Positions 1,204 to 25,791 of a stretch of 35,105 bases of DNA are shown piece after piece. The notes under the pieces were generated by a model. That model made no database searches. It was not told the origin of the DNA and worked only from the letters and a program-made list of their open reading frames with translations. The translations under genes were made by a program, and so were the position numbers. Source of the DNA: a virus (Duplodnaviria > Caudoviricetes); IMG/VR virus record IMGVR_UViG_3300033076_000113, positions 1 through 35,105 of that record, one strand, 5' to 3'. Within the stretch, counting starts at the first letter, position 1; each line of letters opens with the position of its first letter.

Positions 1204-3020
1204 ACGTCATCACCGTAGACTTCGAGACCTTCTACGACCGGCACTTCTCGCTCTCGAAGATGACGACCGAGGAGTATATCCGCGACGAGTTGTTTGAGGT
1301 TATCGGCGTAGCTGTAAAGGTGGGTGACGGGGAGACCCAGTGGTTCTCCGGCCCCAAGGCGCAGACCAAGCGGTGGCTGGAGCAGTTTGACTGGGCGAAC
1401 AGCATAGCTGTGGCGCACAATGCCATGTTCGACATGGCGATCCTGAACTGGCACTTCGACATCCGCCCCAAGCGCATCGCTGACACGCTGTCCATGCTGC
1501 GCGCACTGGACGGGCCAGACGCTGGCAACAGCCTCGCCAAGGCAGCCGAGCGGTATGGGCTGGGGGTGAAGGGCGACGAGGTGGTCAACGCGCTTGGTAA
1601 GGGGCGCATCGACTTCACGCCCGAAGAGCTACACCGCTACGCGCAATACTGCATCAACGATGTGGACCTGACCTACGACCTGTTTAACCGCATCGCAGTT
1701 GGCTTCCCGGCAATCGAGTTTCGCCTGATCGACCTGACGCTGCGGATGTTCACTGAGCCAGTGCTGACGCTCGACGCTACCATCCTGCGGGACCACCTCT
1801 CCGAGGTGCAGCGCAAGAAGAACGAGCTACTGGGCAAAGCGCTCATCTCCAAGGACAACCTGATGTCCAACGGCCAGTTGGCCGAGACGCTGCGCGATCT
1901 TGGGGTAGAGCCGCCGACCAAGATTAGCCCGACTACGGGCAAGGAGACCTATGCCTTTGCGAAGAACGACGAGGCGTTCAAGGCGCTGCTGGAGCATGAG
2001 AACCCTATCGTTCAGGCGATTGTGGCGGCGCGTCTGGGTGTCAAGTCTACGCTGGAAGAGACGCGCACTGAGCGGTTCATCCGGATTGCTGAGCGCGGGA
2101 CCCTGCCCATCCCCCTACGTTACTATGCGGCCCACACGGGACGCTGGGGCGGAGACGACAAGGTAAACATGCAGAACCTCCCCCGGAAGTCGCCACTGAA
2201 GAAGGCGATCCGGGCACCAGAGGGCTATACCTTTATCGACTGCGACTCCTCGCAGATCGAAGCGCGAACCTTGGCGTGGCTGGCTGGGCAGGACGACCTC
2301 GTTGCGGCGTTCGACCGGGGTGAGGACGTTTACAAGATCATGGCCTCCGCCATCTACGGCGTGCCGGTGGACGAGGTGACGGACGACCAGCGGTTCGTGG
2401 GTAAGACCACGATCCTTGGCTGCGGCTATGGGATGGGGGCTGCCAAGTTCCAAGCGCAGTTGCTGACGTTCGGCGTCAAGATGGACCTCGACGAGTGCAA
2501 GCGCATCATTAGCGTTTACCGGGAGACCTACCCCATGATCCCGAAGCTGTGGCGGGCTGCGGGTGACGCGCTAGACGCAATGGCGAACAACCAGACCGCG
2601 CCGCTTGGCCGGGACGGAGTGCTTGTGGTCGAGGGCCGGGAAGGCATCCGGCTACCCAACACGCTGCGTCTACGCTACGAGAACCTGCGCTGGGTGCAGA
2701 CCCCAGAGGGCAAGTCCGAGATGGTCTACGACCAGAAGAAGGGCCGCGCCATCCTCACGACCCGCATCTATGGCGGGAAGTGCGTCGAGAACATCTGCCA
2801 AGCCTTGGCCCGTATCGTGATCGGGGAGCAGATGCTGATGGTCGCACGGCGTTTGCGCGTGGTGATGACGGTCCATGACGCGGTAGGGAGCATTGCTCCT
2901 ACTGAAGAAGCAGAAGACGCGAGACTTTTCGTTGAGCAGTGCATGCGCATCCGCCCCAAGTGGTCGGCCCTGCTGCCGCTGAACTGTGAGAGCAAGATGG
3001 GAGCAAGCTATGGCGGATAA
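1200..3020 (+). CDS. polA: DNA polymerase family A with 3'-5' exonuclease
   Basis: Exo motifs DFET, AHNAMFD, YCINDV; HTGRWGG; motif A DSSQIEAR; motif B RFVGKTTILGCGYG; motif C TVHDA. Confidence 0.97.
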   Translation: MNVITVDFETFYDRHFSLSKMTTEEYIRDELFEVIGVAVKVGDGETQWFSGPKAQTKRWLEQFDWANSIAVAHNAMFDMAILNWHFDIRPKRIADTLSMLRALDGPDAGNSLAKAAERYGLGVKGDEVVNALGKGRIDFTPEELHRYAQYCINDVDLTYDLFNRIAVGFPAIEFRLIDLTLRMFTEPVLTLDATILRDHLSEVQRKKNELLGKALISKDNLMSNGQLAETLRDLGVEPPTKISPTTGKETYAFAKNDEAFKALLEHENPIVQAIVAARLGVKSTLEETRTERFIRIAERGTLPIPLRYYAAHTGRWGGDDKVNMQNLPRKSPLKKAIRAPEGYTFIDCDSSQIEARTLAWLAGQDDLVAAFDRGEDVYKIMASAIYGVPVDEVTDDQRFVGKTTILGCGYGMGAAKFQAQLLTFGVKMDLDECKRIISVYRETYPMIPKLWRAAGDALDAMANNQTAPLGRDGVLVVEGREGIRLPNTLRLRYENLRWVQTPEGKSEMVYDQKKGRAILTTRIYGGKCVENICQALARIVIGEQMLMVARRLRVVMTVHDAVGSIAPTEEAEDARLFVEQCMRIRPKWSALLPLNCESKMGASYGG

Positions 3021-6832: not shown

Positions 6833-6853
6833 TACACCACTAGGAGCAAACTG

Positions 6854-8431: not shown

Positions 8432-8446
8432 ATGAAGGAGCAACTT

Positions 8447-10066: not shown

Positions 10067-12922
10067 GTGAGTGATGCAATGCAACAACCTGATCTCTTGA
10101 CCCTAGTGCAGCCAGCGGAAGGCTGGTTCGCCATCACGGGCATCAAGGGTAAGGGTAAGAACGCTGACGTCCGTCAGGAGCTTGTGGCTACGCGAGAAGA
10201 GGCAGATGCCCTCGTCGAGCAGTTCGTCCAAGCCGGGCGCAATGCGTTCTTTGGGGTGGCTAAGTACAAGACGGGTGACAACCGCAAGAAGGAGAACGTC
10301 CTTGGCCTCAAGGCGTTCTGGCTCGATGTGGACTGCGGCCCGGACAAAGCGGAACCCAACCCCAAGACCGGACGGCCTGACGGCTATGTGGACCAGAAGG
10401 CGGGGCTGGATGCCCTGATGGGCTTCTGCAAAACAATCGGTCTCCCTATCCCTACTCTCGTAAACTCCGGCGGTGGTATCCACGCCTACTGGCCTCTGGA
10501 AGAGACTGTATCCCGGCGCGACTGGGAGCCTGTGGCTGAGCGCTTCAAGGAAGTGTGCCGCACCCAGAACTTCTACGTTGACCCGGCTGTCTTCGAAGTG
10601 GCGCGCATCCTGCGTGTCCCCGGCACGTTCAACTTCAAGGAAGAAGAGCCGCGCCCGGTCGAGTTCATCCATGTGGGCAAGCCTACCACGCTGGAGGCTA
10701 TGCGCGCTGCGCTCGGTGTTAAGAAGCAAGCGTCGATCTTCGACGACGACTTCGAGATGACCCCACGCCAGAAGGCCATGATGAGCGGGGTGGGCTACAA
10801 CTTTAAGAAGATCATGCAGCGCACCGCCAAGGGTGATGGCTGCAACCAGCTTCTACACGCGTACCAGCACCGGGATAGCATCACTTACCACGAATGGTTC
10901 TACGCGCTCTCTGTGGCTGCCATGTGCGAGGACGCCGATAAGGCGGTGCACATGATGTCTGATGGGCATCCGGACTATGACCCGGAGACCGTGGACAAGA
11001 AGGTAGCCACCATCAAGAAGGCGACCAGTTGCGCCAAGTTCCGCAGTGTCAATCCTGACCTGTGCGATGGTTGTCCACATCTGGATAAGATCATGGGACC
11101 CAAGGAACTGGGCAAGGTGGTCAAGGAGTCCAACGAGGACTTTGTAGAGGTTGAGGTCGAGCCGGGTGTGGTCGAGCAGATCGACATCCCTAAGTATCCG
11201 TTCCCGTTCTACCGGGGCGAAGATGGCGGTATCTGGCGCAAACCACCCAAGGACGCGCCTCCTGAAACGGAACCCATGTTCGTCTATCCGTACGACTTCT
11301 ATGTCGTGAAGCGGATGCACGATCCGGGTGAGGGCGACTCGGCGCTAATGAGACTGCACCTACCACAGGATGGGTTGCGTGAGTTCATTGTGCCCATGGC
11401 GAAGGTAACCACGAAGGATGAGCTTCGCAAAATCCTCTCGTCCAACGGGGTCTACTCCTACGGGGCACGGTTCGACGCGCTGATGGACTACGTCCTCAAG
11501 TCAGCAGAGCAGCTACAAGACAGACAGAAAGCAGAGATCATGCGGCAGCAGTTTGGTTGGGTCGATAACAACAGCCGGTTCGTGCTGGGCGACCAAGAGA
11601 TCACCGTCGAGGGGAATGTCTACTCCCCTCCGTCTAAGGCCACTAGCAAGCTGGCCAAGTTCATCGGCCCGGTGGGCACGCTGGAGAACTGGAAGGAAGT
11701 CTGGGCGCTGTTTGGCCAAGAAGGGATGGAAGCACAGGCGTTCGCTGCGCTTAGCGCGTTTGGCTCTCCGCTGCTCAAGTTCCTCAACCAGACCGGGGCC
11801 ATCATCAACCTGTTCAACCCGCGCTCCGGTACGGGTAAGACCACGATCCTCAACATGGTGAACAGTGTCTACGGGCACCCGAAGGAACTGCGCCTCAAGG
11901 AGATCGACACTATGAACGGTCGGCTCCAGTGGGTGGGCATCCTCAATAACCTGCCGCCTACGATGGACGAGCTTACCAACGCCACGCCGAAGGAATATTC
12001 GGACCTGCTCTACATCATGTCCAATGGTAAGGGTAAGGAGCGCATGTTGGCGGGGTCCAACGAACTGCGCGAGAACAACACCACATGGCAGAACATCACG
12101 GTCTCGACATCCAACTCGTCGTTCGCTGAGAAGCTGTCGGTCCTCAAGGATAACCCGGAAGGCGAACTGATGCGCCTGATCGAGTACCCCATCGGGCTGG
12201 TAGACGCGATCAACACGGCGCATGCCAAGAACCTGTTCGATCAGGTGCTGTTCGCTAACTACGGGCACGCTGGACCGGTCTACATCCGCTACCTACTGGC
12301 CAACCTAGAGCAGGTTCAGACCAAGTGCCTCGCCATGCAAGCCAAGATCGACAAGGAGCTTCAGCTTCTTCCCAAGGAGCGGTTCTGGTCAGCCACGTTC
12401 GCTGCCAACATCCAAGGTGGGCTGTTCGCCAAGCGGTGCGGTCTGATCGACTGGGATATGACCCGTATCTATAACTGGTCGTGCAAGCAGATCGAGCGGC
12501 TGCGGGTCGAGACTGAGGCCCCTCTTGACGGACCAGAGCAGGCGGTCGGTGATTACCTCTACCGGCATATGCAGAACATCCTCGTCGTCAACGGTGAGGC
12601 TGACCGGCGCACTAACCTGTACGCAGGGCCGGTGCGCGAACCAAAGGGTGAGTTGCTGGTCCGCATCGAGCCGGACACCAAGATGATGTTCTTCATCGCC
12701 AAGCACTTCAAGGAATACTGCGTTAAGTACCAGATCAACTACAACCAGACCCTCGACAAGCTGGAGCAGCAGGGCCGTCTGGTGAAGAAGGCTGGGAAGC
12801 GCCTGTCCAAGGGTATGGCGGTCTCCGGTGAAAATATCCACTGCCTCTGGTTCAAGCTCTCGGAAGACTTCGTCGGGGTAGACGAGTACGTCCAGCCGGA
12901 CGCCGAGGACGATGCTGATTGA
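10067..12922 (+). CDS. primase-helicase (RepB-like primase plus DUF927-type ATPase); start may be ATG 10079
   Basis: WLDVD, NSGGGIHAYW, RILRVPGTFN primase motifs; Cys cluster; SGTGKTT Walker A, MDE Walker B, GKGKER. Confidence 0.9.
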   Translation: MSDAMQQPDLLTLVQPAEGWFAITGIKGKGKNADVRQELVATREEADALVEQFVQAGRNAFFGVAKYKTGDNRKKENVLGLKAFWLDVDCGPDKAEPNPKTGRPDGYVDQKAGLDALMGFCKTIGLPIPTLVNSGGGIHAYWPLEETVSRRDWEPVAERFKEVCRTQNFYVDPAVFEVARILRVPGTFNFKEEEPRPVEFIHVGKPTTLEAMRAALGVKKQASIFDDDFEMTPRQKAMMSGVGYNFKKIMQRTAKGDGCNQLLHAYQHRDSITYHEWFYALSVAAMCEDADKAVHMMSDGHPDYDPETVDKKVATIKKATSCAKFRSVNPDLCDGCPHLDKIMGPKELGKVVKESNEDFVEVEVEPGVVEQIDIPKYPFPFYRGEDGGIWRKPPKDAPPETEPMFVYPYDFYVVKRMHDPGEGDSALMRLHLPQDGLREFIVPMAKVTTKDELRKILSSNGVYSYGARFDALMDYVLKSAEQLQDRQKAEIMRQQFGWVDNNSRFVLGDQEITVEGNVYSPPSKATSKLAKFIGPVGTLENWKEVWALFGQEGMEAQAFAALSAFGSPLLKFLNQTGAIINLFNPRSGTGKTTILNMVNSVYGHPKELRLKEIDTMNGRLQWVGILNNLPPTMDELTNATPKEYSDLLYIMSNGKGKERMLAGSNELRENNTTWQNITVSTSNSSFAEKLSVLKDNPEGELMRLIEYPIGLVDAINTAHAKNLFDQVLFANYGHAGPVYIRYLLANLEQVQTKCLAMQAKIDKELQLLPKERFWSATFAANIQGGLFAKRCGLIDWDMTRIYNWSCKQIERLRVETEAPLDGPEQAVGDYLYRHMQNILVVNGEADRRTNLYAGPVREPKGELLVRIEPDTKMMFFIAKHFKEYCVKYQINYNQTLDKLEQQGRLVKKAGKRLSKGMAVSGENIHCLWFKLSEDFVGVDEYVQPDAEDDAD

Positions 12923-13106
12923 GGGCGTCACCTATGATGTGGACTGGCCGAGGTTCAAAAAGGGGAGGTCGCTCTTCTTCCCCTGCCTCGATCAGGCACG
13001 CGCCGAGACACAACTAATGGTGGTCCTCAACCGCCTCCGCATCAAGGTCTTGGTCAAGCACGTTATCGAAGACGGGATTAGGGGTTTACGGGTCTGGCGC
13101 ATGTGA
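12912..13106 (+). CDS. hypothetical protein
   Basis: GAGGA RBS; ends GIRGLRVWRM, a frequent ending in small phage DNA-binding proteins. Confidence 0.75.
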   Translation: MLIEGVTYDVDWPRFKKGRSLFFPCLDQARAETQLMVVLNRLRIKVLVKHVIEDGIRGLRVWRM

Positions 13107-13113
13107 GTATACG
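13085..13113 (+). promoter_or_regulatory. putative promoter for junction sRNA
   Basis: TTTACG (13085-13090), 17 bp, TATACG (13108-13113), ending 6 nt before hairpin 1. Confidence 0.55.
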
Positions 13114-13119
13114 GGCGCT

Positions 13120-13195
13120 GGAAGTTTGCTCCTTCCGTCGGGTGCATTGCATCACTCCCGAACCCCCGGCTGCCTCACTCAGCCGGGGGTTTTTT
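13120..13195 (+). ncRNA. candidate three-hairpin trans-acting antisense sRNA
   Basis: Hairpins GGAAG/CTTCC (13120-13136), TCGGG/CCCGA (13138-13161) and terminator; 11-15 nt exact complementarity to helicase and primase start regions. Confidence 0.7.
13161..13195 (+). terminator. intrinsic terminator between convergent modules
   Basis: AACCCCCGGCTG-cctcact-CAGCCGGGGGTT followed by T run. Confidence 0.9.
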
Positions 13196-16100
13196 ATTGC
13201 CCAAGCTCGGCTGCGCGCCGTTCCGCCTCAGACTGACGCACTGGGATTTTCGGATTGTAGCCAAGGCCACCTTCCCGCTGCGCAGCATCCGCGCTCTTAC
13301 TGGCGTAGGACTTCTGCTTGTCTTCCTCAGTGATCTCGTTCGACGGGTAGTTGAGGTTGTAGATTTTGATCGCCCGCTCGGCTTCCTGAAACTCCTTGGC
13401 GGTCTCAGGGGTCGGGTTGAGGTAGTAGGCCCGAGCAGCGCGGTACCGCTGACCCAGCAACTGGGTAGCCTCAGCAGCGATGCCCTTTTCGATGTCAGTG
13501 GCGGCGATGTCCAACTGCATGTTGCGCGAAGTCTCTGCGTCACCAAACCCGAGAGACTGCATCCCCGTCTTGTACAGGGTGTAGTAGCTGGGGTCCTTTA
13601 GCATAACATCACGGTCTGCCCCCACCACGAGACCTTCGTCCCGCAGCCGCTGGGCCTTGATGAAGTTGCGGATCATGGCGGGCATGCCCGTCTCAATGGC
13701 CTTATCAATGTCCCCAGCGTTGAACTGCTTCCACGACTTAAGGAACGAGGCATACATAGAGCCAGTGGCACCAGCACCGGCACGCCCCATGAACTCGAAC
13801 AGCCGCACCTCAGGGTCATCTGACTTAGTAGCAACCGGGTGCCACAGATCGCCCAGTGAGACCGATCCAGACAGGTCTACGTTAAAGAGGCCCGGAAGCC
13901 CGATGTCGGCGGCTGCCTCCAGCTTCTTCGCCGCAGTGTCACCAACACCCAGCATAGAAGCCAGTGTGCCGTTGGGTCCAAACATCTGGGGAATCCATTC
14001 GGTCCGGATGTAGTACTCCATATCCTTCTTGCTCAGTTCGTGCCCCTTTTCGTCGGCGTACTTGAGCATTTCCTTCTGGATGGTCTCGTCGGTCAGGTAG
14101 CCGCCAGCAACTTCCTTGTCCTTGTCCTCATCATCGTCACCCAGACCCTTGACGAACTCCATCAGACCGTAGCCCAGCATGGCGAGGGCATAGAACTGAG
14201 TAGCACGGAAACCGCCGTAGAGCGCGGTCATCGCCCCCACGCCGAAGAACACCTTGGCCGAGGCGACCTTACCTTCCTTGTTGAAGTACGGGAGCATCCC
14301 GTAGAAGCTACGGAACAGCAGCGACGACATGGTGATGCTGTACGAGCGCATCTGAAGTGCCAGCCGCCCGACCGGTGCCTTGGAGTAGCGCGACTTGTTC
14401 CAGTTGGTGAAGTCGAACATCGCCTTCCGGGTGAGCTTGTCTGCCTGTTTCATGGCAGCATCACCAGCAGCAGCCGGGTCCATGCCTCCCTTGAGATTGC
14501 GCTCGTAGGCCAGTTCGAAGGCCGACATATACATGATCTCACGCCCGATACGCTCGGTGCTATGGAAGAGCGCACCCATGGCATTGATGGCGTTCCCAGT
14601 AGCCCTCTGGGCTGCGGTCAGCACTTCCCCACGGCGCAGAGCCTGCACGGCCCCAAAGTCCCCGGTGGGGGTATCAGCACGCTCATAGATGTCTGCCCCC
14701 GCTGAGAACGTGCTCTCGGTGACGTCGTGGTCCTTGGCGTACTCCCATGCCTTCTGCATAGCAGCGTAGCGGTCAGGATCGGTCTCTTGCAGGCCACGGA
14801 TGTACGCGCTGTCTTCCGCCGTGAACTTGGGGAACTCCAGCTTCACATTACCTTCTTCGTCCCGGAACGGGACCGCCATGCGCTTACCGGTCAGCAGTTC
14901 TGCCGTGTAGCGGGTAGCCATGCCGTAGGTGGCCTTCTCACCAAACTCAGCCGACAGGGTGGGCAGACCCACGATGTGAAGCTGGGTAAGGTTCATGGCA
15001 GCCGACTTCACCCCGGACAGGAAGAAGAGGAAGGTGCCCTTGGCATTGACGCTGACGAAGCGGTCAAACCAGCCATTGATGTCTGGCGACATGATCCCTT
15101 CAACGCGCATCTCGATCTCGCGGGTCATCGTATCCAGCCGGGGCTTGGACGGATTACCCGCAGTCTCGGCGTAGGATGCCTCGATGAGGTTCTTCAGCCT
15201 GTAGTTGTACGCAAGCCTGCCAAGCTGGCTGGCAGAGGCTACCGCAGTAGACGCAAAGGTGCGCAGTGCGTCGGTGCTGAAACCAGTCTTGAACTCGCGG
15301 TGGATGAAGCGCCGACGCATGTCTGCCTCAGGCAGCGCCATCAGGTACATCTGGAAGATGTTGTCCTTGAGGACGTCCACATCGGTGACATTGTCCCCCT
15401 CGATCTTGTCGAGGATGTTCCGGAGTGCCACGCTGGCGTCCGCAGCCTTGCTACGCAGTCCGTTGCGCAGGGTGTCCTTACCTTGGCTGAAGTCGATAGC
15501 GCGCGTCTCACCCTCGGCCTTAATCTTCCGGACGAAGTCCTGCTGCTCTCCGAGGCTTTCGAACAGGTGAAACTCGCTGTTCGGACCCTTACCGACGCTA
15601 ACCCAGTATTCACCAAAGCGCTTGAGCGGGAAGTAGATGCTGCGTGCCCGCGCCTTGGCGAACATTTCATCGACCGCCGACTTAAGCTCGACAGCCTTCT
15701 CGTTCTCGAACTGAGATGCGTCGATGCGCTCCATGAGGAGACGGTAGTGCTCCTCGAAGGTATTGCGGTAATGGTCCCGGGCCAGACGGAAGATGCGCTT
15801 GCCAGCGCCGCCACCCATCTTGGCATCCGACAGGTCGTTCCAACCATACACCTTAGCGCCAGTGTCGGGGTCTTCACCACCATAGTAGACGCGCTGGATT
15901 TCCCCACGGCGGCGGCTGATCTGCCCCTTGAGCGCGTTCTTTTTCTTCGGGTCCGTTTCGGCTGCTAGCTTAGTAGCAAGCTCGATCAGCTTGGTATCAA
16001 CCTTGGCGTACTCTGCTGCCGACGCAGCCAGCGTTGGGTCCACATCGTACATGTTGGCGATGTACATTACATCGGCCAGCGCCTGATTGCCCTCCTCAAA

Positions 16101-19100
16101 GCGCGAGGCAAACTCAGTCCACTTCTCGGATACAGACGAAGCAGCCTGCATAAGCCGATTGATGTAGGGGCTGTACTCATCCCGGATCATATCGTCGATC
16201 TTCGAGATGTTCTCCATGCCAGCACGCTCAGCGAGGCGCACCACGTCCTCGGTCATCATCGGACCAAGCAGCTTCTGGAGGAGCGGTGGGGGGACGCTAT
16301 TGAAGAGGCTCGTCAGGAGATTGACGTCGTCGTTCTGACCACGCGCAAGCAGCATCAGCTTACCCGACAGGCTCAGGGCCTCTTCGGCATTACGGCTCTT
16401 AACGATCCGCTGCTGCATGTTGCTGAGCTTCATCCGGCGGATACCGGCGGCTTCTTCCAGTCGCTTGATCTGCCCCTTGGTCAGCTTGGCTGATACAACC
16501 TGATCGACGTTGGCGTCAGTTACCGGCTCCGTGCCACCCTGAGCGCCTGCTCCAGTGTCCCGCCCTGCTCCAGCACTGCCAGTACGTTCGAAAGATGGGC
16601 CGAGTACGGATTCCCCGGTGCTTCCTGCTCCGCTAGGTCCGCGTACGTCGCCAGTTCCGCCGTCGCCTGCTCCTTCGGATGCTTGCTCTGGGCTGCCTTC
16701 TGTAAAACGATTTCCGCGATATTCGACGGTGATGTCGGGGTTTTTGCCATTGAAAAGCTCCACGCCGAGTTGGACAATATCGGCATAATCGTTGGCGACT
16801 GTAGTCGCAAAAGCAGTCTTGAACCAGTCATAGTCGAACTGGTCATCAGCTTCCAAGTTCAACAGGATGTCCTGCATCTCGGCAGGGAAGTTAGCGTTAT
16901 GGCTGCGCACCTTATGGTGAGCAAGCTCGTGAACCATCGTGCCGACGATGCCGTAACCAGCGCGCAGACCATCCCCATACTTGGGGACCAACGGGTTGAT
17001 GAAGCTACCTGAGAACGGCAGCCGGATCGAGACACCACGATACTCAGGGTCAAACGAGACACCAATCGCTTCGTCGCGGAGGCTACCATAACCCATGACG
17101 CGAGCGACTTCGTTGCGCAGCGTGAGGAACGCGTCCCCGTTGTAGCGCATGAAGTCATCAAAGCGCTGCCCGAACCGGCGGCGCATATAGTCCGGGATCG
17201 ACATCTTCTCACCAGTGGCGTTGATGACCACATCGGTGTTGTCGTGGACCATGACCGCATTCGTGTCGATGAGGTCCGGGCTAACCGTAAGGTCGCTGGC
17301 GCTCGGGATACCAGCCTTCAGTTCATCCGGGGTCAGTTCGGGCATTTCCTGCCCGTTGACCAGCAGTTCCCCGTTCTCGCCAACCGTGATCTGGTCGCCC
17401 TCTGCAATGCGCGTGAAGGCCGTGTCCTGCACCGGGATGTCCGGCGTAAGGTCTACCATCGGGCCAAGCTGGCCATCGGGCTGAAAGTACTGGATGCTAC
17501 CGAAGCTCGTCGCTTCTCCAGCCCTACTCTTGTAGGCATAGATAGCGTCAACGTACTTCTTAACCTTACCAAACTCCATCTTGGCGTCGTCGGTAAAGTT
17601 TTGGCGGTTGAAGTTGAACGGGTACCCCGGCTGGTCCGGCTTCACGGACGGCACGATGTCCACATAGAAGGTATAAGGGACCGAAGGCCCCCACATGTCT
17701 GAAGGGTCTTTCTTCACCGCAGTCGAGAACTGCCACAGCCCGTTCGACAGGATGTGCATGTTCTCACCATAGGTCTGCGCGGTCTGGTTGCGAGTGACAT
17801 AGACCTTGGCAGTACCCCATGGGAACTTCACTCCGACAAACTGGGTGTAGTCCTCAACTGGGAAGTTCGAGCCGACCTTAACGTCTTCTGGCCCCATGTA
17901 GCTGCGACCTTGGAAGGTGACAGCGATGTTCGAGAACAGGGGGCTGAGTTCAAGTGACGGGACGCCATCCAGCCAGCGGGGAAGCTCCTTGATTTTGTAG
18001 TCGCCAGCTTCTTCCGGGATCGTCAACTGGATGATGGTGCCATGCCCGTCAGGGAACACCATGAAGTCCGGACCCGCAAAGTCACGGACCTCGATGTCCG
18101 GGGCCTGATTAGGATCGTCGAGTGAAGCGAAAAGCTGCTCGCCTGTCACGTCCATCTCAGCGATGCGCCCATCCCGCGCAGTGGTCACGCGGATGTTCTT
18201 GTTGGCGTAGAGGAACAGCATCTTGGCGATGCCGAAGCCGCCCGCGTTCTTGTCGCCTTCCTTGGCCGTACCAGCGATCTCAAGGAACTTACCGCCCAGC
18301 AGTTCGGGCGTCATACCGATCCCGTTGTCCTTGACCGTCAGCTTGCGGCCATCATCCGAGACGACGATGTCGATCTTACCCTGCTGGACCTGCCCTTCGT
18401 TAACCGCAGTCCGGGTAGCGTCGAACGAGTTCTGGAGGACTTCCTTGATGCAGACCTGACCCATATTGGTCGGGTCACCATAAAGCTGCGGGCCGAGCAT
18501 CTTAGCCATGCGGGTGGCGTTGATCCCCGGCTTGGCGCGGATCGTCTCGTACTCAGGATCGTAGGGCGTTACCTGCTCGACCATGTCCTCCTTTGGCATG
18601 GCATCGACTTCCGCCTGTGCCATGTTGAGGACCTTCTCAGCCGCAGTCTTACCGGGCTTGCGCTTAATGGTCGCCTTGACCGCCTTGGCCTTGGCACCCT
18701 TGGTACCGACCGCCTTGACCTTCTCCGGTGCGCGAGCGGGAGCAGCCTTAGCTGCTGCTTGCGTAGGTGCAGCCTGCGCTTCAGCGACGCGTTCTTGTGC
18801 CCACTGCTGCCCAGCCTTGTAGGCGTCCAGAGCGTCTTGGCCCTGCGCTTCTAGGATTTGCTGGTCGGGGAGCGGCTCACGCCCACGCTGAGTGTCCACT
18901 GCGCCTTCACGGAACATGCCCGGATCAAGGCCACGGTCCTGCGCTTCCGACACGGCGAAGCGGTCGAGGTTCTCCGCAATCTGCTGCGGAGTGTACTGCG
19001 GTTCTGGCGTGATAGAAGGTGCTTGGGTGGCGGGGCGCACCATGCTGCCGTCAGGCTGCTCTTGGAAGCCGAAGCCCTTGTACCATTCGGTCAGTTCGGT

Positions 19101-21146
19101 GGGCGACATCTGCTTGCCCGCTTCAGCCGCAAACGGCTCGGGGCTAAGCTGGATCGTGGTGCCATTATCGTCAGCCGCCTTGGTAAGCTGCTGCATGGCC
19201 TTGCGGCCACCACCCTTCTCGACTGCACGCAGGCTATCAAGCTGAACGATGTCTTCGCCAACAGGGGTAAGCTGGATGCCACCACCTTCGACCAATACCT
19301 CATTGGTGTTCTCGGGATTAACCGTACCGGCACCAGCCAAGTCGTTAAGGGTCTTCTGCGCCGGGGGCGTGACCTTCTCAACCGTAGCCGTCTCAGCCAC
19401 AGTGGGACCTTCGACGACCTGCTGTTCACCATTGACTTCGGTAACCGTGCGGAAGGTACCCGGGGCTTCACCCATGGGCTGTTCGGTCTTGGGCTGCTCG
19501 ACCTTAGGTGCAACAGTCTCACCACGCAGGCGCTGGCCGCGTTCCAGAACGGACCCAATCGCATCGTAGGGATCGACTTCCGGGCTTTGCAGCACGATGC
19601 GCGCAGCCTGCTTCTTCTGCTCGGCGTTGAGCTTCTTGACGCCATAGCTGTCTTCGAAGTCGATCTGGTTGTCCGCGAACGTCTGCTCGATGGTCGGGAT
19701 GGTAGCCTTGACCTGCGCGCCCGTGATCTTGGGTAGCTCAAGCGGAGGCGCGGTCGGAGCCGGAGTTAGTGCAGGCTCTCCCGCTCGCGGGCCAACATCA
19801 GGAACTGATACGCTAGGAACAGGTTCTCCCAGTCCTCCAGTGACAGCTTCTCCAATGTCGGGGATACCGGCTCCGGTCGGTGCGGCTCCGAGATCAGGAG
19901 CAACGCCTGCTCCAACTCCTCCGCTGACATCCACAGTGGTACCAGTAACGGGTTCTGCATTTGCTCCTCCCTCTCCCCTAGCCACCATGTTGGCTGCGGC
20001 TTTGGTGAGCAGTTCTTCCGCCCGCTCCGAAACTGCCTCGACAGCAGTCTTCTGGTCCATACCCGGGTTAGCAGCCATGACGGCGGCAACCTCTTGGGCT
20101 GCCAGCCGCTGAAACTCCTGCTTGATCTCCGGAGCGACCGGAACACCCTCACTGGTAACGTCCCCCTTGCGGCGGAACGGCGCGGCGACAGCCTCGGTAG
20201 CACCCGTAAACACCGTACCACCAAGGGCACCAGCCAGACCGGCTTCGAGCGTTTCAAGCATGGCCTTCTTGGTGAGAGGGTCCGTGCCGCCAGCGACCTG
20301 CTCAATTACGTTCTGGAGCATTTCGGTCCCGGCTTCCTCGCCGCCCGATTTAGCAACCCGGATCGCTGCCTGCTTCAATCCAGCCTCAAGCAGTTCCTTA
20401 GCAGCAATAGCTGCGGTACCGCTCAAAATCTTCCCACCAACACCGGTTAGTACATCAAGCGCAGAGGACGCGGCAGTACCGAAAACTGCCCTGTCTATGT
20501 TGCGAATGCCTTCGGCCTGTTGGCGCTCACGGATACCGCCGTAGGTCATCGGGACATTGCCCGCACCCATAACGAGACCGGCAGCCATAGGGCTACGAGT
20601 GAGAAGCCCAGTGGCTACACCCGCACCAACAGGGAGCGCGCTCTCCGCCACTGTTTCGGCCAAAGAACCTAGGCTGCGCCCAAAACCCTGCTCTTCAAAA
20701 AAGCCACCATATTTACGTGGGCCAATTTCAGCCAACTGCTTTTCAGCCGCTGCGCGCTCAGAGGCGACCATTTCGCCGGTGAGGCCCTTGTAGGTTTCCG
20801 ATTGGGCAGCAGCCGCGCCAAGACCCTTTGCCAATGGCGCAAGATAATTTGTGCCCGGTAGCGACGAGAAGAGAGACGCCGCGACTTCCGGAGCGTCTTC
20901 AACGATCTGCGCTAGCCCCTTACGGAGATTCGGTACACCGCGCTCTACCGCGCGCCCCAATGCCGAGAAGACACCTTCGTCTTCCGGAGCAGCAGAGGTC
21001 GGGGCCGGTGCAGGAACCGCTGGGGTTTGGACCGGGGCAGCCTGTGCATGGGTCATATTAGCCCATTGCCACGCCGTGTTTGCGTCAGGGGCCGTGACGA
21101 TATATTCTGCGTCTCCGACTTTTACCCTGTACTTGGCGTCAGGCAT
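13194..21146 (-). CDS. giant polyvalent internal virion protein with GNAT-like, GHKL ATPase and HEXXH zincin-like regions
   Basis: 2650 aa; EKGGGRKAM...LTEWYKGFGF; KEVLQNSFDA, VKDNGIGM, GGFGIAK; MVHELAHHKVRSH; helical C-terminal half; last gene of the virion operon. Confidence 0.88.
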   Translation of the reverse strand: MPDAKYRVKVGDAEYIVTAPDANTAWQWANMTHAQAAPVQTPAVPAPAPTSAAPEDEGVFSALGRAVERGVPNLRKGLAQIVEDAPEVAASLFSSLPGTNYLAPLAKGLGAAAAQSETYKGLTGEMVASERAAAEKQLAEIGPRKYGGFFEEQGFGRSLGSLAETVAESALPVGAGVATGLLTRSPMAAGLVMGAGNVPMTYGGIRERQQAEGIRNIDRAVFGTAASSALDVLTGVGGKILSGTAAIAAKELLEAGLKQAAIRVAKSGGEEAGTEMLQNVIEQVAGGTDPLTKKAMLETLEAGLAGALGGTVFTGATEAVAAPFRRKGDVTSEGVPVAPEIKQEFQRLAAQEVAAVMAANPGMDQKTAVEAVSERAEELLTKAAANMVARGEGGANAEPVTGTTVDVSGGVGAGVAPDLGAAPTGAGIPDIGEAVTGGLGEPVPSVSVPDVGPRAGEPALTPAPTAPPLELPKITGAQVKATIPTIEQTFADNQIDFEDSYGVKKLNAEQKKQAARIVLQSPEVDPYDAIGSVLERGQRLRGETVAPKVEQPKTEQPMGEAPGTFRTVTEVNGEQQVVEGPTVAETATVEKVTPPAQKTLNDLAGAGTVNPENTNEVLVEGGGIQLTPVGEDIVQLDSLRAVEKGGGRKAMQQLTKAADDNGTTIQLSPEPFAAEAGKQMSPTELTEWYKGFGFQEQPDGSMVRPATQAPSITPEPQYTPQQIAENLDRFAVSEAQDRGLDPGMFREGAVDTQRGREPLPDQQILEAQGQDALDAYKAGQQWAQERVAEAQAAPTQAAAKAAPARAPEKVKAVGTKGAKAKAVKATIKRKPGKTAAEKVLNMAQAEVDAMPKEDMVEQVTPYDPEYETIRAKPGINATRMAKMLGPQLYGDPTNMGQVCIKEVLQNSFDATRTAVNEGQVQQGKIDIVVSDDGRKLTVKDNGIGMTPELLGGKFLEIAGTAKEGDKNAGGFGIAKMLFLYANKNIRVTTARDGRIAEMDVTGEQLFASLDDPNQAPDIEVRDFAGPDFMVFPDGHGTIIQLTIPEEAGDYKIKELPRWLDGVPSLELSPLFSNIAVTFQGRSYMGPEDVKVGSNFPVEDYTQFVGVKFPWGTAKVYVTRNQTAQTYGENMHILSNGLWQFSTAVKKDPSDMWGPSVPYTFYVDIVPSVKPDQPGYPFNFNRQNFTDDAKMEFGKVKKYVDAIYAYKSRAGEATSFGSIQYFQPDGQLGPMVDLTPDIPVQDTAFTRIAEGDQITVGENGELLVNGQEMPELTPDELKAGIPSASDLTVSPDLIDTNAVMVHDNTDVVINATGEKMSIPDYMRRRFGQRFDDFMRYNGDAFLTLRNEVARVMGYGSLRDEAIGVSFDPEYRGVSIRLPFSGSFINPLVPKYGDGLRAGYGIVGTMVHELAHHKVRSHNANFPAEMQDILLNLEADDQFDYDWFKTAFATTVANDYADIVQLGVELFNGKNPDITVEYRGNRFTEGSPEQASEGAGDGGTGDVRGPSGAGSTGESVLGPSFERTGSAGAGRDTGAGAQGGTEPVTDANVDQVVSAKLTKGQIKRLEEAAGIRRMKLSNMQQRIVKSRNAEEALSLSGKLMLLARGQNDDVNLLTSLFNSVPPPLLQKLLGPMMTEDVVRLAERAGMENISKIDDMIRDEYSPYINRLMQAASSVSEKWTEFASRFEEGNQALADVMYIANMYDVDPTLAASAAEYAKVDTKLIELATKLAAETDPKKKNALKGQISRRRGEIQRVYYGGEDPDTGAKVYGWNDLSDAKMGGGAGKRIFRLARDHYRNTFEEHYRLLMERIDASQFENEKAVELKSAVDEMFAKARARSIYFPLKRFGEYWVSVGKGPNSEFHLFESLGEQQDFVRKIKAEGETRAIDFSQGKDTLRNGLRSKAADASVALRNILDKIEGDNVTDVDVLKDNIFQMYLMALPEADMRRRFIHREFKTGFSTDALRTFASTAVASASQLGRLAYNYRLKNLIEASYAETAGNPSKPRLDTMTREIEMRVEGIMSPDINGWFDRFVSVNAKGTFLFFLSGVKSAAMNLTQLHIVGLPTLSAEFGEKATYGMATRYTAELLTGKRMAVPFRDEEGNVKLEFPKFTAEDSAYIRGLQETDPDRYAAMQKAWEYAKDHDVTESTFSAGADIYERADTPTGDFGAVQALRRGEVLTAAQRATGNAINAMGALFHSTERIGREIMYMSAFELAYERNLKGGMDPAAAGDAAMKQADKLTRKAMFDFTNWNKSRYSKAPVGRLALQMRSYSITMSSLLFRSFYGMLPYFNKEGKVASAKVFFGVGAMTALYGGFRATQFYALAMLGYGLMEFVKGLGDDDEDKDKEVAGGYLTDETIQKEMLKYADEKGHELSKKDMEYYIRTEWIPQMFGPNGTLASMLGVGDTAAKKLEAAADIGLPGLFNVDLSGSVSLGDLWHPVATKSDDPEVRLFEFMGRAGAGATGSMYASFLKSWKQFNAGDIDKAIETGMPAMIRNFIKAQRLRDEGLVVGADRDVMLKDPSYYTLYKTGMQSLGFGDAETSRNMQLDIAATDIEKGIAAEATQLLGQRYRAARAYYLNPTPETAKEFQEAERAIKIYNLNYPSNEITEEDKQKSYASKSADAAQREGGLGYNPKIPVRQSEAERRAAELGQ
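16520..16750 (-). CDS. candidate overprinted 76-aa ORF nested in giant gene
   Basis: GGAG 7 nt before ATG; helical-looking product; host frame is a G/A/T linker with atypical GGA/GCA/ACT codons. Confidence 0.5.
   Translation of the reverse strand: MAKTPTSPSNIAEIVLQKAAQSKHPKEQATAELATYADLAEQEAPGNPYSAHLSNVLAVLEQGGTLEQALRVARSR
19766..19960 (-). CDS. candidate overprinted 64-aa ORF nested in giant gene
   Basis: GGGAGGAGCAA-ATG strong RBS; amphipathic acidic product; host frame is a low-complexity linker with A/T-ending codons. Confidence 0.65.
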   Translation of the reverse strand: MQNPLLVPLWMSAEELEQALLLISEPHRPEPVSPTLEKLSLEDWENLFLAYQFLMLARERESLH

Positions 21147-21147
21147 G

Positions 21148-22572
21148 TTAGTCTACCCTTTGGACTGCACCTCTCGGAGGAGCACCATAGTCACTCCCAC
21201 CACTCATACCACCCCTAGCACGTTGGACGGCCCCCTGAACATAGGCATCTTCGGCTTTTTGTAGCGCGGCGTATGCGGTGGCTGCCTGCTGGGAGTTACC
21301 TCCAAACTTCTGAAGCGCCAGCTTGTAGGCGTTGTTTGCCAGACCGATGGGGTTATTGAGCGCCGCACGCAGTTCGGGAAGCTGAGCAACTGCACCTGCC
21401 GCCACCTGCCGCTCCAACTGGACAAGCTGCTTATCCGCGAATGCCGTCTGTGCGTTAGCACCAATTTGGGCTGACCGGATTTGCGCACCTACCTGCTGCT
21501 GCGTGCGCCAGTTCGCCTGCTGCTCCTCGTACATCTTGAGGAACTTCTGCTGCTTCCGGTTGAGGTCAGCTTCACGGTAGTCGCCGTACTTACCCGACAT
21601 GTTAACAGCAATGTTGGCAACCTCGCGGGCGTCCTTGTTGCTGAGACCTTCCTGCTGAGCCAGCGTCTTGATGGCATCGCGCTGCTCGGCGCGGCGCTCC
21701 TTGGCGTTTGCCAAGATACCCGGAAGGGCTTCACCAATACCGGCGCTGGCAGCTTGAAGCAGCGAACCCGGAGTGCTGGCCATTTTGGCACCGATCTGGC
21801 CAAGAGCCATCCACATGTCTTCCTTGCGGCGGGCCTTCTGCTTCTCTGGGTTGAGGACATCCTCGTAGAACGTGTTGAGCTTGTCGCTGTACTTATGCTG
21901 CTGAGGAGCCAACTGATCCATGGTACGCAGGTTGAACTTGGGGTCACGGTAGAACCCATAGATCGACTCAGGCGTCGTATCACCTTCAACCACAATCTCA
22001 TCGGTATCGACGTTTTCAAGTGGCGCGTTGGGGTCGGTGACTTCCTCACCTGCGGCAAAAGCCACAAGGCCACCACCACGGTAGCCGTCATTGAATCCGC
22101 CATTGCTGGGTTCGTCGAACATCCCGTCAGGGAGCGGGAGGTCAGAGAGACCGCCGCCCGAGGCGTAAGGGGGTACCATACCACCCGCAGCCATACCCGG
22201 TGCGGCTTGCGCTCCGGGGGCACCCATCATCGCTTCAGCAGGCGCAGGCATAGCTGCCGCTTGCGGAGTAGCACCAAGACCAGCAGGGGCACCCATCGGG
22301 GCCTGAGGCATACCTTGCGGCATCTGGGGTGCCGGGGGAGTAAACAGCTTATCAAACACTGTCTGCTGGGGGACAGCTTCTGCCTGCGCAGCATCACGCA
22401 CTTCGTCGATGAAGTTAGCCGCAGCAGTAGCCAGCAACTGGTCCATCGGGGCAGGCGCAAACCGACGAAGCGCCCCGCTCTGGAGCGCCTGCAAAATCTT
22501 CTGCTTGTTACCACCAAAGAGCTTGGCGATACGCTCCGGAGACTGGAGGCTAAAAGATTTGGCTTCTTCCAT
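21148..22572 (-). CDS. putative internal virion/ejection protein
   Basis: A/Q/G/P-rich helical protein with AxGG motifs, directly upstream of giant gene. Confidence 0.7.
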   Translation of the reverse strand: MEEAKSFSLQSPERIAKLFGGNKQKILQALQSGALRRFAPAPMDQLLATAAANFIDEVRDAAQAEAVPQQTVFDKLFTPPAPQMPQGMPQAPMGAPAGLGATPQAAAMPAPAEAMMGAPGAQAAPGMAAGGMVPPYASGGGLSDLPLPDGMFDEPSNGGFNDGYRGGGLVAFAAGEEVTDPNAPLENVDTDEIVVEGDTTPESIYGFYRDPKFNLRTMDQLAPQQHKYSDKLNTFYEDVLNPEKQKARRKEDMWMALGQIGAKMASTPGSLLQAASAGIGEALPGILANAKERRAEQRDAIKTLAQQEGLSNKDAREVANIAVNMSGKYGDYREADLNRKQQKFLKMYEEQQANWRTQQQVGAQIRSAQIGANAQTAFADKQLVQLERQVAAGAVAQLPELRAALNNPIGLANNAYKLALQKFGGNSQQAATAYAALQKAEDAYVQGAVQRARGGMSGGSDYGAPPRGAVQRVD

Positions 22573-24298: not shown

Positions 24299-25791
24299 GC
24301 CAGACCCTTCCGCAACTTGGTGTCCTTACCACGCGCAGACTTCTTGCGAGCCTTATGGGCCTTATCCATAAGCGCGTAGAGTTTCTGGGCACCGCGCTTT
24401 GCGTTACCCTTACCAACACGGCGCACCGCCTCCGGTGAAAAGACGACTTCGTCACGAGCCACACGGGCGGGTTGGTCACGACCAATCCGGGCGGGGACAG
24501 AGTCGCTCACCCCATCACCCGGACCCCGGACTGGACGACCCCCCATGCGGGCGAGAAGCTCTTGCCCTGCACCACTGCTACCGTTCCCAAGCTCTGAGAC
24601 CGTGCGGGCGTCAACGACAAATGCACCATCTGCTAGTTGGACTTCGCCGCCCTTGGCGTACCCTTCGTCACCACCCATGAACGGCGTACCCACCAGCGAG
24701 TACATTGGCTGGCCCTTCTTGGCCTTCGGGTTAGGCACGTTCTGGTAGATCATCGTACCCGGCGCGGTGTTCGTACCGGGCTGCACAACCTGACCCATGA
24801 CGTTGCGGACTTCCGGAACATCGACGGCAAAGTAATCGCGCTCCTTGGACGAGCCAAGGATGTCCTGTGTGGACGGAGCAAACGTAGCCTCGCGCTTCTG
24901 CGCAACGTACGGACCTGCGTACGAGTTGTCGATCTTGCCTTCGGAAGTCTGGTATCCGGGAGTAGTAGCTGCGTTCAACGTGTTGAGGACGCCAAGACCC
25001 GCCATCGGAACTGCGGCCTTCCCCAGCATACCGGTCATATTACCTTTGGCGGTCTGAGCGAAGCCCTGACCAAACCGGGAGAGAACACCCGGGGCTTTAG
25101 TCACCGCCTGCTGCGCAGCCTGTTGTGCCGCCTGTTGTGCCACAAACTCTGGGCTACCGGCAAGCGCCGCGTCAATCGGAGGAGGTACCGGAACACCGCT
25201 AACCGGGGCAATCGGAGGAGTAGCGCCGGGGACTGGCGCACCCGGAGTTGGAACCGCTGCCTTGCTTACCGCGCCTTGGATACCACCAGCGAGTGAAGCG
25301 CCGCCATAAGCGCCTAGGCCAGCCATAAGGCCCTTTTGCAGGTCGCCTGTAACCGCAGTGGTGCCAGCGGCAGTGAGGAGGCCAGCAGTAACGGCCTTGC
25401 CACCCAGCGAGGCTACGAGGCCACCACCGGGCAGTACGAAGTTTAGGCCGACCCCGAGGAGCATCGGGAGGATTTTGCTCAGGAAGCCAGCTTCGGGGAG
25501 GCCGGTGTGGGGGTTGATCGTCAGCGAACCACCGTGCGCCATAGCCAGCCCTTGGAGGCTGTTGACCTCTTGTGGGGTCATATGGACGAGCATGGAATCG
25601 TCGCCGCGTCCATAGCTCTGAAGCTGCTGCGCCATCGGGTTCTGAAGAACCGAGAGACCGCCCTGTGCTGGAAGCCCACCAGACATGCCCGGAACCTGCT
25701 GACCAAGCACAGGCGGATTACCCGCCGGGGGTCGAACACCACCTGCTGGGGTATATGTCGGCGGGGCAGCCTGTACGTCCATCACGATCAC
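24295..25791 (-). CDS. putative internal virion protein (start may be ATG 25782)
   Basis: GRGDDSMLVHMTPQEV...TINPHTGLPEA; G/A hydrophobic region; GPGDGVSDSVPA...EVVFS C-terminal module. Confidence 0.7.
   Translation of the reverse strand: MIVMDVQAAPPTYTPAGGVRPPAGNPPVLGQQVPGMSGGLPAQGGLSVLQNPMAQQLQSYGRGDDSMLVHMTPQEVNSLQGLAMAHGGSLTINPHTGLPEAGFLSKILPMLLGVGLNFVLPGGGLVASLGGKAVTAGLLTAAGTTAVTGDLQKGLMAGLGAYGGASLAGGIQGAVSKAAVPTPGAPVPGATPPIAPVSGVPVPPPIDAALAGSPEFVAQQAAQQAAQQAVTKAPGVLSRFGQGFAQTAKGNMTGMLGKAAVPMAGLGVLNTLNAATTPGYQTSEGKIDNSYAGPYVAQKREATFAPSTQDILGSSKERDYFAVDVPEVRNVMGQVVQPGTNTAPGTMIYQNVPNPKAKKGQPMYSLVGTPFMGGDEGYAKGGEVQLADGAFVVDARTVSELGNGSSGAGQELLARMGGRPVRGPGDGVSDSVPARIGRDQPARVARDEVVFSPEAVRRVGKGNAKRGAQKLYALMDKAHKARKKSARGKDTKLRKGLA

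Follow-up and report, generated by a model that had tools for sequence, protein, structure and literature searches.

The DNA analyzed here (the window) is the whole of the linear virus record IMGVR_UViG_3300033076_000113, 35,105 nucleotides long and 56% complete. Replication genes (family A polymerase, PD-(D/E)XK nuclease, SNF2 helicase, Gam-like/DUF7307, HTH, and DUF927 primase) lie on its plus strand and virion genes on its minus strand, the last of these encoding a giant protein of 2650 amino acids. Within this giant gene, in its +1 frame, we identified what is almost certainly a small protein-coding gene, conserved, unannotated, and of a new family. The nested gene encodes 64 amino acids (19766..19960, minus strand; ATG at 19960, TAA at 19766), covers residues 396-461 of the giant protein in the window, and reads exactly as quoted in an earlier note that had pointed to an alternate-frame open reading frame (ORF) at this site. 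That note had also placed a ribosome-binding site (RBS) at 19960-19971; a GGAGG (19970-19966) is present before the ATG with a 5-nt spacer, but the quoted span takes in the A of the ATG, and the RBS is given here as 19961..19971 (minus strand). In the window, the RBS is also complementary to the hairpin of a candidate small RNA (sRNA), which is treated separately below.

Homologues and start of the nested gene

With the window peptide as query, 14 of 14 candidate proteins had 72-83% identity, and a profile of 34 sequences found 52. A local profile iterated over 132 loci plus the window (cut-off E below 1e-5) gave 43 matches in 33 distinct loci, window included, and all 43 were in the +1 frame of the giant gene. 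The gene was nested likewise in 12 additional loci, of which several duplicate earlier ones; L013, L139, and P0021 were judged false positives and removed. Among the homologues, identity to the protein of the window goes down to 21% with W44 invariant throughout, and the N-terminal part varies in length, giving totals of 57 to 79 amino acids. The nested gene always follows the Gly-rich N-terminal region of the giant protein, at giant residue 455-650 in all but one of the 33 loci, the exception being L068 (residue 940). Clade B homologues (L047, L034, L032, L067, L056, L040, and L026) have a Lys/Arg-rich N-terminal extension before the core, unlike the acidic proteins of clade A.

Near-identical DNA is present in riverine, marine, soil, and lake metagenomes. 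Among cultured phages, the closest relatives have 21-33% identity for a virion protein and 29% at best for the primase. No homologue of the nested protein was identified in 50,697 cultured-phage records (one row at E = 1), nor did the nested-gene profile match in the five nearest virion-gene relatives among cultured phages, with 31-42 kb scanned in each. The sole GTDB-genome match to the nested gene (L133) was a false positive, and a bacterial host is therefore not given by GTDB. No free-standing homologue was identified among the loci examined, a search that did not cover the context of P0018 and P0022. In the literature, searched through titles and the starts of abstracts and with few subscription journals, we found no description of nested genes in giant or polyvalent phage proteins, or of the present protein family.

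The nested frame is open upstream to 20305 in the window (115 codons). This extension is not conserved, with several relatives having an in-frame stop directly before the ATG (immediately 5' of it in L009, L010, L022, L027, and L028), which argues that the nested gene is initiated independently. Most homologues have a Shine-Dalgarno (SD)-like element 5' of the chosen start, the starts entering these RBS counts having been picked by the analyst. The earlier note had named stops in this frame of homologous linkers, together with a missing RBS, as signs against its proposal; this pattern did not occur in the homologues, the frame being open and the SD-like element mostly kept. The upstream opening could also serve a programmed +1 frameshift that yields a short giant isoform with the nested C-terminus, and in one database protein (P0061) the first 455 residues of the giant protein are indeed joined in frame to the nested protein's C-terminal half. 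However, the SD and ATG are conserved, the five relatives have their stop before the ATG, and P0061 comes from a single contig with its joint mid-gene, as an indel would give, making a frameshift highly improbable. P0061 resembles a frameshifted L050-like gene, which may be an assembly error or a natural variant.

In the 300 nt upstream of the nested gene, we identified no conserved internal promoter: none was present in the window, and matches occurred in 7 of the 33 loci, sharing one position in only three close relatives. Late timing is suggested by the location of the gene on the structural-gene strand and by the lack of a conserved internal promoter, and the nested gene would be translated from its own RBS on late mRNA.

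Selection and codon usage in the overlap

The ratio of nonsynonymous to synonymous differences (pN/pS) was computed over the last 54 codons for 15 loci of clade A and 8 of clade B. In clade A, it was 0.29 in the small frame, 2.16 in the giant frame, and 1.00 in the third frame, and the corresponding values in clade B were 0.43, 1.92, and 0.78. Amino-acid identity in clade A was 0.76 in the small frame versus 0.54 in the giant frame. Position 3 of the giant codons was the least variable within the overlap (mismatch 0.12) and the most variable elsewhere (0.59-0.66 overall, 0.63-0.66 in other regions of the giant gene in clade A), consistent with the synonymous-site constraint that the earlier note had proposed to look for. 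Because all-against-all pairs are not independent, the count was redone on 15 disjoint pairs, picked by the analyst for closeness. Mismatches in these pairs were distributed 102/67/175 over the small-frame codon positions (chi-square P 3e-12), and the small frame had fewer amino-acid changes in 14 of the 15 pairs (126 vs 234 in all), L057/L073 being the exception. The small peptide is conserved more than the giant linker by both measures. Among metagenome contigs, 17 strain variants were scored inside the ORF, leaving one second allele and two unlisted rows unscored; 11 of them leave the small-frame protein unchanged, and 2 leave the giant-frame protein unchanged. Several more distant contigs lose their match at 19766-19790, near or at the stop, and at 19934-19970, near the start.

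What these alignments indicate is purifying selection on the nested frame in particular. The conservation could in principle reflect a DNA or RNA element or a constraint of the giant frame, with no protein made, and the lack of any family match to the peptide fits such an origin. We find this hardly credible, since the distribution of mismatches over codon positions is that of the small frame and rules out the giant frame, while substitutions stay conservative down to 21-35% identity and the stop is fixed.

The codon anomaly claimed for the main frame was borne out. Over the overlap (64 codons), the giant frame is linker-like (14 Gly, 10 Val, 9 Ala, 9 Pro, and 5 Thr), with GGA used for 10 of 14 Gly codons versus 30 of 256 over the whole giant gene, and with a GC content at codon position 3 (GC3) of 0.33 versus 0.71 in the remainder of the gene. 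We compared the frames by the codon adaptation index (CAI) relative to the giant gene's own usage, a comparison that stands in place of the Hotelling test of PMC8227390 as the test of frame age. The CAI of the small frame exceeded that of the giant overlap in 33 of 33 loci, with means of 0.70 for the small frame, 0.55 for the giant overlap, and 0.76 for the rest of the gene, and the overlap was the poorest CAI window of the giant gene in 30 of 33 loci.

The codon usage expected of the new frame was thus not found in the small gene, as de novo overprinting would have it; the small frame is nearer to genome usage in all 33 loci, which makes the linker the passenger frame. The G/A/P/V/T content of the linker follows from a Leu/Glu-rich, GC3-rich protein being read one base shifted. 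By codon usage alone, the small gene would be the older frame. A long relaxation of the linker gives the same pattern and no free-standing homologue was found, so the greater age of the small frame is something we infer. By phylogenetic range, the giant gene is the wider of the two, and the overlapped linker is absent or different in the non-carriers examined. The term "overprinted" used in the earlier note may have the direction reversed, with codon usage marking the small frame as native. On direct evolutionary evidence, what passes for a "disordered linker" in a giant phage protein can be the shadow of a well-conserved gene that annotation discards.

Two non-carriers with the same downstream module, L043 and L053, have a shorter G/V/A/P/T linker at giant residues about 470-520, and its +1 frame has no resemblance to the nested family. 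This linker is a possible loss or pre-insertion state of the nested gene.

Same-strand embedded genes are known as a kind, including lambda Rz1 in Rz and Bacillus subtilis comS in srfA. Another, phiX174 E, lies embedded in D (PMC8227390). The nested gene is like these three in being small and inside a larger same-strand gene, in a shifted frame, and with its own RBS; it has no sequence relation to them, its product is not a lipoprotein or a membrane lysis protein, and here the small frame has the genome-typical codons and carries the selection. For hepatitis B virus (HBV), the polymerase spacer has been proposed as a new frame over an older short gene (PMC8227390). As in our case, the linker of a multidomain protein is taken as the new frame by the same codon-usage logic, although HBV pre-S is an envelope protein of a eukaryotic virus and the nested product a 64-aa soluble phage protein.

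The nested protein and a possible link to Lon

An AlphaFold2 model built with 34 sequences (pLDDT 88) has helices at residues 13-24, 34-37, and 41-63 and is predicted to end in a long helix plus a tail. The conserved core residues are W44, L39, L47, L54, and A19, and the homologues are mostly acidic (net charge -2 to -8 in 26 of 33). No transmembrane segment was identified, with 0 of 33 homologues reaching a 19-residue Kyte-Doolittle mean of 1.6 (maximum 1.38); a membrane-type form of the toxic peptide suggested in the earlier note thus finds no support. The peptide had no match in Pfam, PHROGs, NCBIfam, or PADLOC, and the 34 members gave isolated weak matches only in Pfam and PHROGs. The best PDB sequence match (GOLPH3, E 0.0045 over 38 positions) was rejected as noise, and Foldseek gave no match at E up to 0.001. 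The best VIA match had Z 4.9 and the best BFVD row was Caulobacter phage Kronos A0A386KQ20 (E 0.43), neither being significant, and neither of two sequences tried was present in the ESM Atlas. Homodimer prediction scored 0.01 against a mark of 0.42 and was counted neither way. Embedded genes being familiar, what is new is the protein family, without a match in Pfam, PHROGs, NCBIfam, PADLOC, or PDB.

The strongest functional clue is the free C-terminus. The protein ends in S-L-H followed by the stop (19766..19777, minus strand), and this tail is near-invariant across the family, with His last in 32 of 33 homologues and Val, Leu, or Ile penultimate in 33 of 33. Among 337 C-termini of long ORFs from the same phages, 3 have a [VLI]-H ending. 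The A of the His codon is a third position of the giant frame, which therefore does not impose the His. Position -3 is Ser in 21 and Thr in 6 of the 33, and position -4 is Glu, Ser, or Gln in 31 of 33.

Such endings resemble signals for the bacterial protease Lon. Lon degrons with a C-terminal His include -VTLH, -FTVH, and -DLSLH, and a His-to-Asp change abolishes the recognition of C-terminal His degrons by Lon (PMC11986505). Caulobacter LarA binds and activates Lon via a C-terminal helix and a short tail ending in V88-H89 (PMC10665427), and the nested protein is alike in being small and in having a C-terminal helix with a short tail that ends in a hydrophobic residue and His. In contrast to LarA, it is phage-encoded and nested. 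Membership of the LarA family (DUF1150, PF06620) was rejected, with 0 of 34 members matching at E up to 0.1, and the window genome had 0 matches to PF06620 while the Caulobacter control was positive.

The [VLI]-His C-terminus is predicted to be recognized by Lon, and whether the tail is a Lon signal appears to us evenly balanced. Small, soluble, and helical, and probably made late in infection, the nested protein would act as a competitive decoy or modulator of Lon, which might protect late products, loosely folded ejection proteins for example, against degradation. This role is a tentative proposal, possible but short of probable. Lambda CIII and T4 PinA, two phage proteins acting on such proteases, are free-standing genes. 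The small, amphipathic, helical CIII serves as a substrate of FtsH and at the same time inhibits it competitively, and PinA inhibits Lon (PMC1838920). The substrate-inhibitor behavior of CIII is our working model for the nested protein, with the differences that the target of CIII is FtsH, at the early choice between lysis and lysogeny, and that neither CIII nor PinA shares a Pfam or PHROG match with the nested protein. Three intracellular inhibitors of ATP-dependent proteases were counted in 2007 (PMC1838920), and a Lon decoy would add to the short list of those encoded by phages.

Several observations weigh against a Lon-directed role. The L073 homologue ends in Asn. With Ser/Thr at -3 and Glu/Ser/Gln at -4, the tail misses the x-L/I-L/I/V-H consensus, and Ser/Thr at -3 marks the weaker degron class, in which -DLSLH is a weak degron (dissociation constant KD 30 uM; PMC11986505). 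Thr or Ser does stand at this position in the validated degrons -VTLH, -FTVH, and -DLSLH. LarA mutants implicate V86 in activation (PMC10665427), and the nested protein has Ser/Thr at -3 and lacks an equivalent of this residue. A Lon degron may also only shorten the lifetime of the protein and be silent on the partner of its core. Further, the gene is accessory. The distribution was scored in 60 distinct sRNA loci, a sample defined by an exact sRNA 17-mer and including some carriers first found through the peptide; 44 of these loci had a complete giant ORF, and the nested gene was present in 30 and absent at this site in 14, from which its accessory nature follows. Presence and absence require 3 changes on a primase tree (40 rows) and 7 on a tree of the giant C-terminus (44 rows; FastTree of the last 650 residues), both being quick builds with differing row sets.

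Among carriers, the flanks of the giant protein, its central modules, and its C-terminal clade vary freely, and carriage of the nested gene had no link to the GHKL or HExxH modules. This variation indicates that the gene is not tied to one domain of the giant protein and, together with the 3 versus 7 tree changes, fits a target outside it. It also counts against a co-translated helper that would chaperone or package the giant ejection protein or its neighbors and be cleared after assembly through its tail, as do L043 and L053, which keep the downstream module without the gene, and the 14 of 44 giants that lack it. Nesting would fix the stoichiometry of such a helper, and the constant place of the gene in the giant gene, its conserved folded core, and the upstream helical segments related among many carriers (a circular test) agree with one; on balance, we regard a helper as rather unlikely.

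A target outside the giant protein need not be Lon. P22 sieA is a small exclusion gene beside ejection genes, and a small, acidic, accessory protein with a conserved hydrophobic core could be a short-lived effector on another bacterial target (superinfection exclusion, or inhibition of an enzyme or a defence), its lifetime set by the Lon-type tail. Searches of PADLOC, PHROGs, Pfam, and NCBIfam returned nothing beyond noise, however, and there is neither a transmembrane segment nor a conserved internal promoter for early or lysogenic expression, so that an effector of this kind is unlikely, and a Lon decoy or modulator is retained as the working proposal.

The candidate small RNA and the rest of the giant gene

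The earlier note had joined the nested gene to an sRNA circuit, and our analysis separates the two. The candidate sRNA (13120..13197, plus strand) lies where the gene arms meet and comprises a 5' hairpin (GGAAG-TTTGCTC-CTTCC), a spacer, and an intrinsic terminator at 13160-13192 plus a T run (z -3.97). Rfam had no family for it, with nothing at gathering level, and a literature search of the same scope as above found no description of such a phage sRNA. The sRNA 17-mer is matched by at least 119 viral stretches, in some cases through unrelated coding sequence, and gave the 60 distinct loci. In L005 and L140, which were found through the peptide, the sRNA stem is changed and the loop kept. L057 and L073 carry a second seed copy (TTTGCTCCC) in the terminator loop, which is C-rich or TTGCTC-like in other members.

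The sRNA loop is the complement of an extended tag (AGGAGCAAAC) in the RBSs of replication-strand genes. GGAGCAA stands at a start-codon position in 137 of its 248 occurrences; when all GGAGNNN heptamers are pooled, 826 of 7141 are so placed. The replication strand holds 133 of the 137. Two conserved predicted targets carry the AGGAGCAA tag in the window: the RBS of the Gam-like/DUF7307 gene (8436..8443, plus strand; ATG 8447), with GAGCAA in 49 of 54 orthologues, and that of the SNF2 helicase gene (6842..6849, plus strand; GTG 6854), with GAGCAA in 26 of 41. The gene that follows the DNA polymerase (ATG 3010) has a third GGAGCAA tag (3000-3006, plus strand) ahead of its start, and several relatives share it. 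Early-strand RBSs, and not the nested gene, are therefore the most likely targets of the sRNA as judged from these motifs.

The match between the nested RBS and the sRNA exists as described, pairing over 12 nt with one G-U to TTTGCTCCTTCC (13125-13136, plus strand). Searching with the 12-mer gave 3 matches when up to 1 mismatch was allowed (mean in shuffles 0.16), among them the sRNA itself and a same-sense coding match at 24871. The model of the earlier note, a toxic or regulatory peptide silenced by the phage sRNA through this pairing, can point to the strongest duplex of the 27 start regions in the window (-20.8 kcal/mol), beyond those of the conserved targets. Contigs of three runs spanning the RBS show it unaltered, although two of them may come from a single strain and chance would leave about half of such spans intact, and the AAGGAG-type SD of most carriers could pair with the 3' stem arm (mean sRNA duplex -13.7, versus -9.9 for other late genes).

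The loop tag tells otherwise. GAGCAA is present in the nested-gene RBS in 1 of 33 loci, the window alone, and in 0 of 12 further loci, including the closest relative (84% identity), against 49/54 and 26/41 for the conserved targets. In two late genes it is found in 0 of 29 and 0 of 23 cases, and it is absent from late-strand genes (0/67). CAA follows GGAG in 40 of 1948 late-strand cases, a rate that gives P = 0.50 for at least one tag in 33. The loop, needed to nucleate pairing, is unmatched in the relatives, so the pairing is not a conserved circuit; in addition, 14 of 44 loci have the sRNA but lack the nested gene, and the peptide has no membrane helix. Antisense control of the nested gene as a conserved circuit is thus not supported, silencing of a toxic or regulatory peptide is very unlikely, and the match is probably incidental. 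The RBS varies along with the variant sRNA stem in L140 but not in L005, and covariation was therefore rejected.

The potential pairing of a small RNA with the RBS of a small ORF recalls type I toxin-antitoxin systems. The case differs from them in that the nested pairing is not conserved, the product has no membrane helix, and the sRNA also occurs by itself and has conserved targets elsewhere. A recruitment of the nested RBS to the sRNA in this lineage only is very unlikely. Also quite unlikely is a fuller scenario in which the small gene was once free-standing and was absorbed as the linker of the giant gene, belongs to a new family of Lon modulators with a LarA-like His tail, and had its RBS recruited by the sRNA here.

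A putative sRNA promoter (TTTACG-17 nt-TATACG; 13085..13113, plus strand) lies inside the end of the gene at 12912-13106. This gene (plus strand) is a conserved 64-aa gene of no known family ending G-L-R-V-W-R, and its last codons hold the putative -35. A TA-starting hexamer occurs 16-18 nt 3' of the -35 in 60 of 60 loci, the -35 itself lying in conserved codons and being part of the locus filter. In 52 of the 60 loci, the putative promoter lacks the last T of the -10, a trait reported for alphaproteobacteria (PMC7703639). The -10 form is a weak hint at an alphaproteobacterial host and not an assignment.

The giant gene (13194..21146, minus strand) encodes a polyvalent DarB-like protein with a GHKL ATPase (897-996), HExxH near 1407, phrog_10089, and a weak LPD39 match. 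It is probably an ejected virion protein, a role suggested by its neighbors phrog_4287 and phrog_3287. The giant genes of the 44 loci are strongly mosaic, with two unrelated C-terminal types and the GHKL ATPase motif in 6 of 44.

A second +1-frame ORF (16520-16750, minus strand; 76 amino acids) has a GGAG 11 nt before its ATG and lies over a Gly/Ser/Thr linker after HExxH. Antisense to its start, the segment at 16722-16778 (plus strand) holds a hairpin resembling a terminator and the sole match to a sigma-70-like consensus within 12500-21500; the hairpin and promoter counts are within chance. Homologues of the second ORF are nested likewise in L026, L027, L028, L148, and L151, and over 6 pairs its mismatches by its own codon position are 0.12/0.19/0.27. 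It is probably a second hidden gene traveling with the GHKL/HExxH module.

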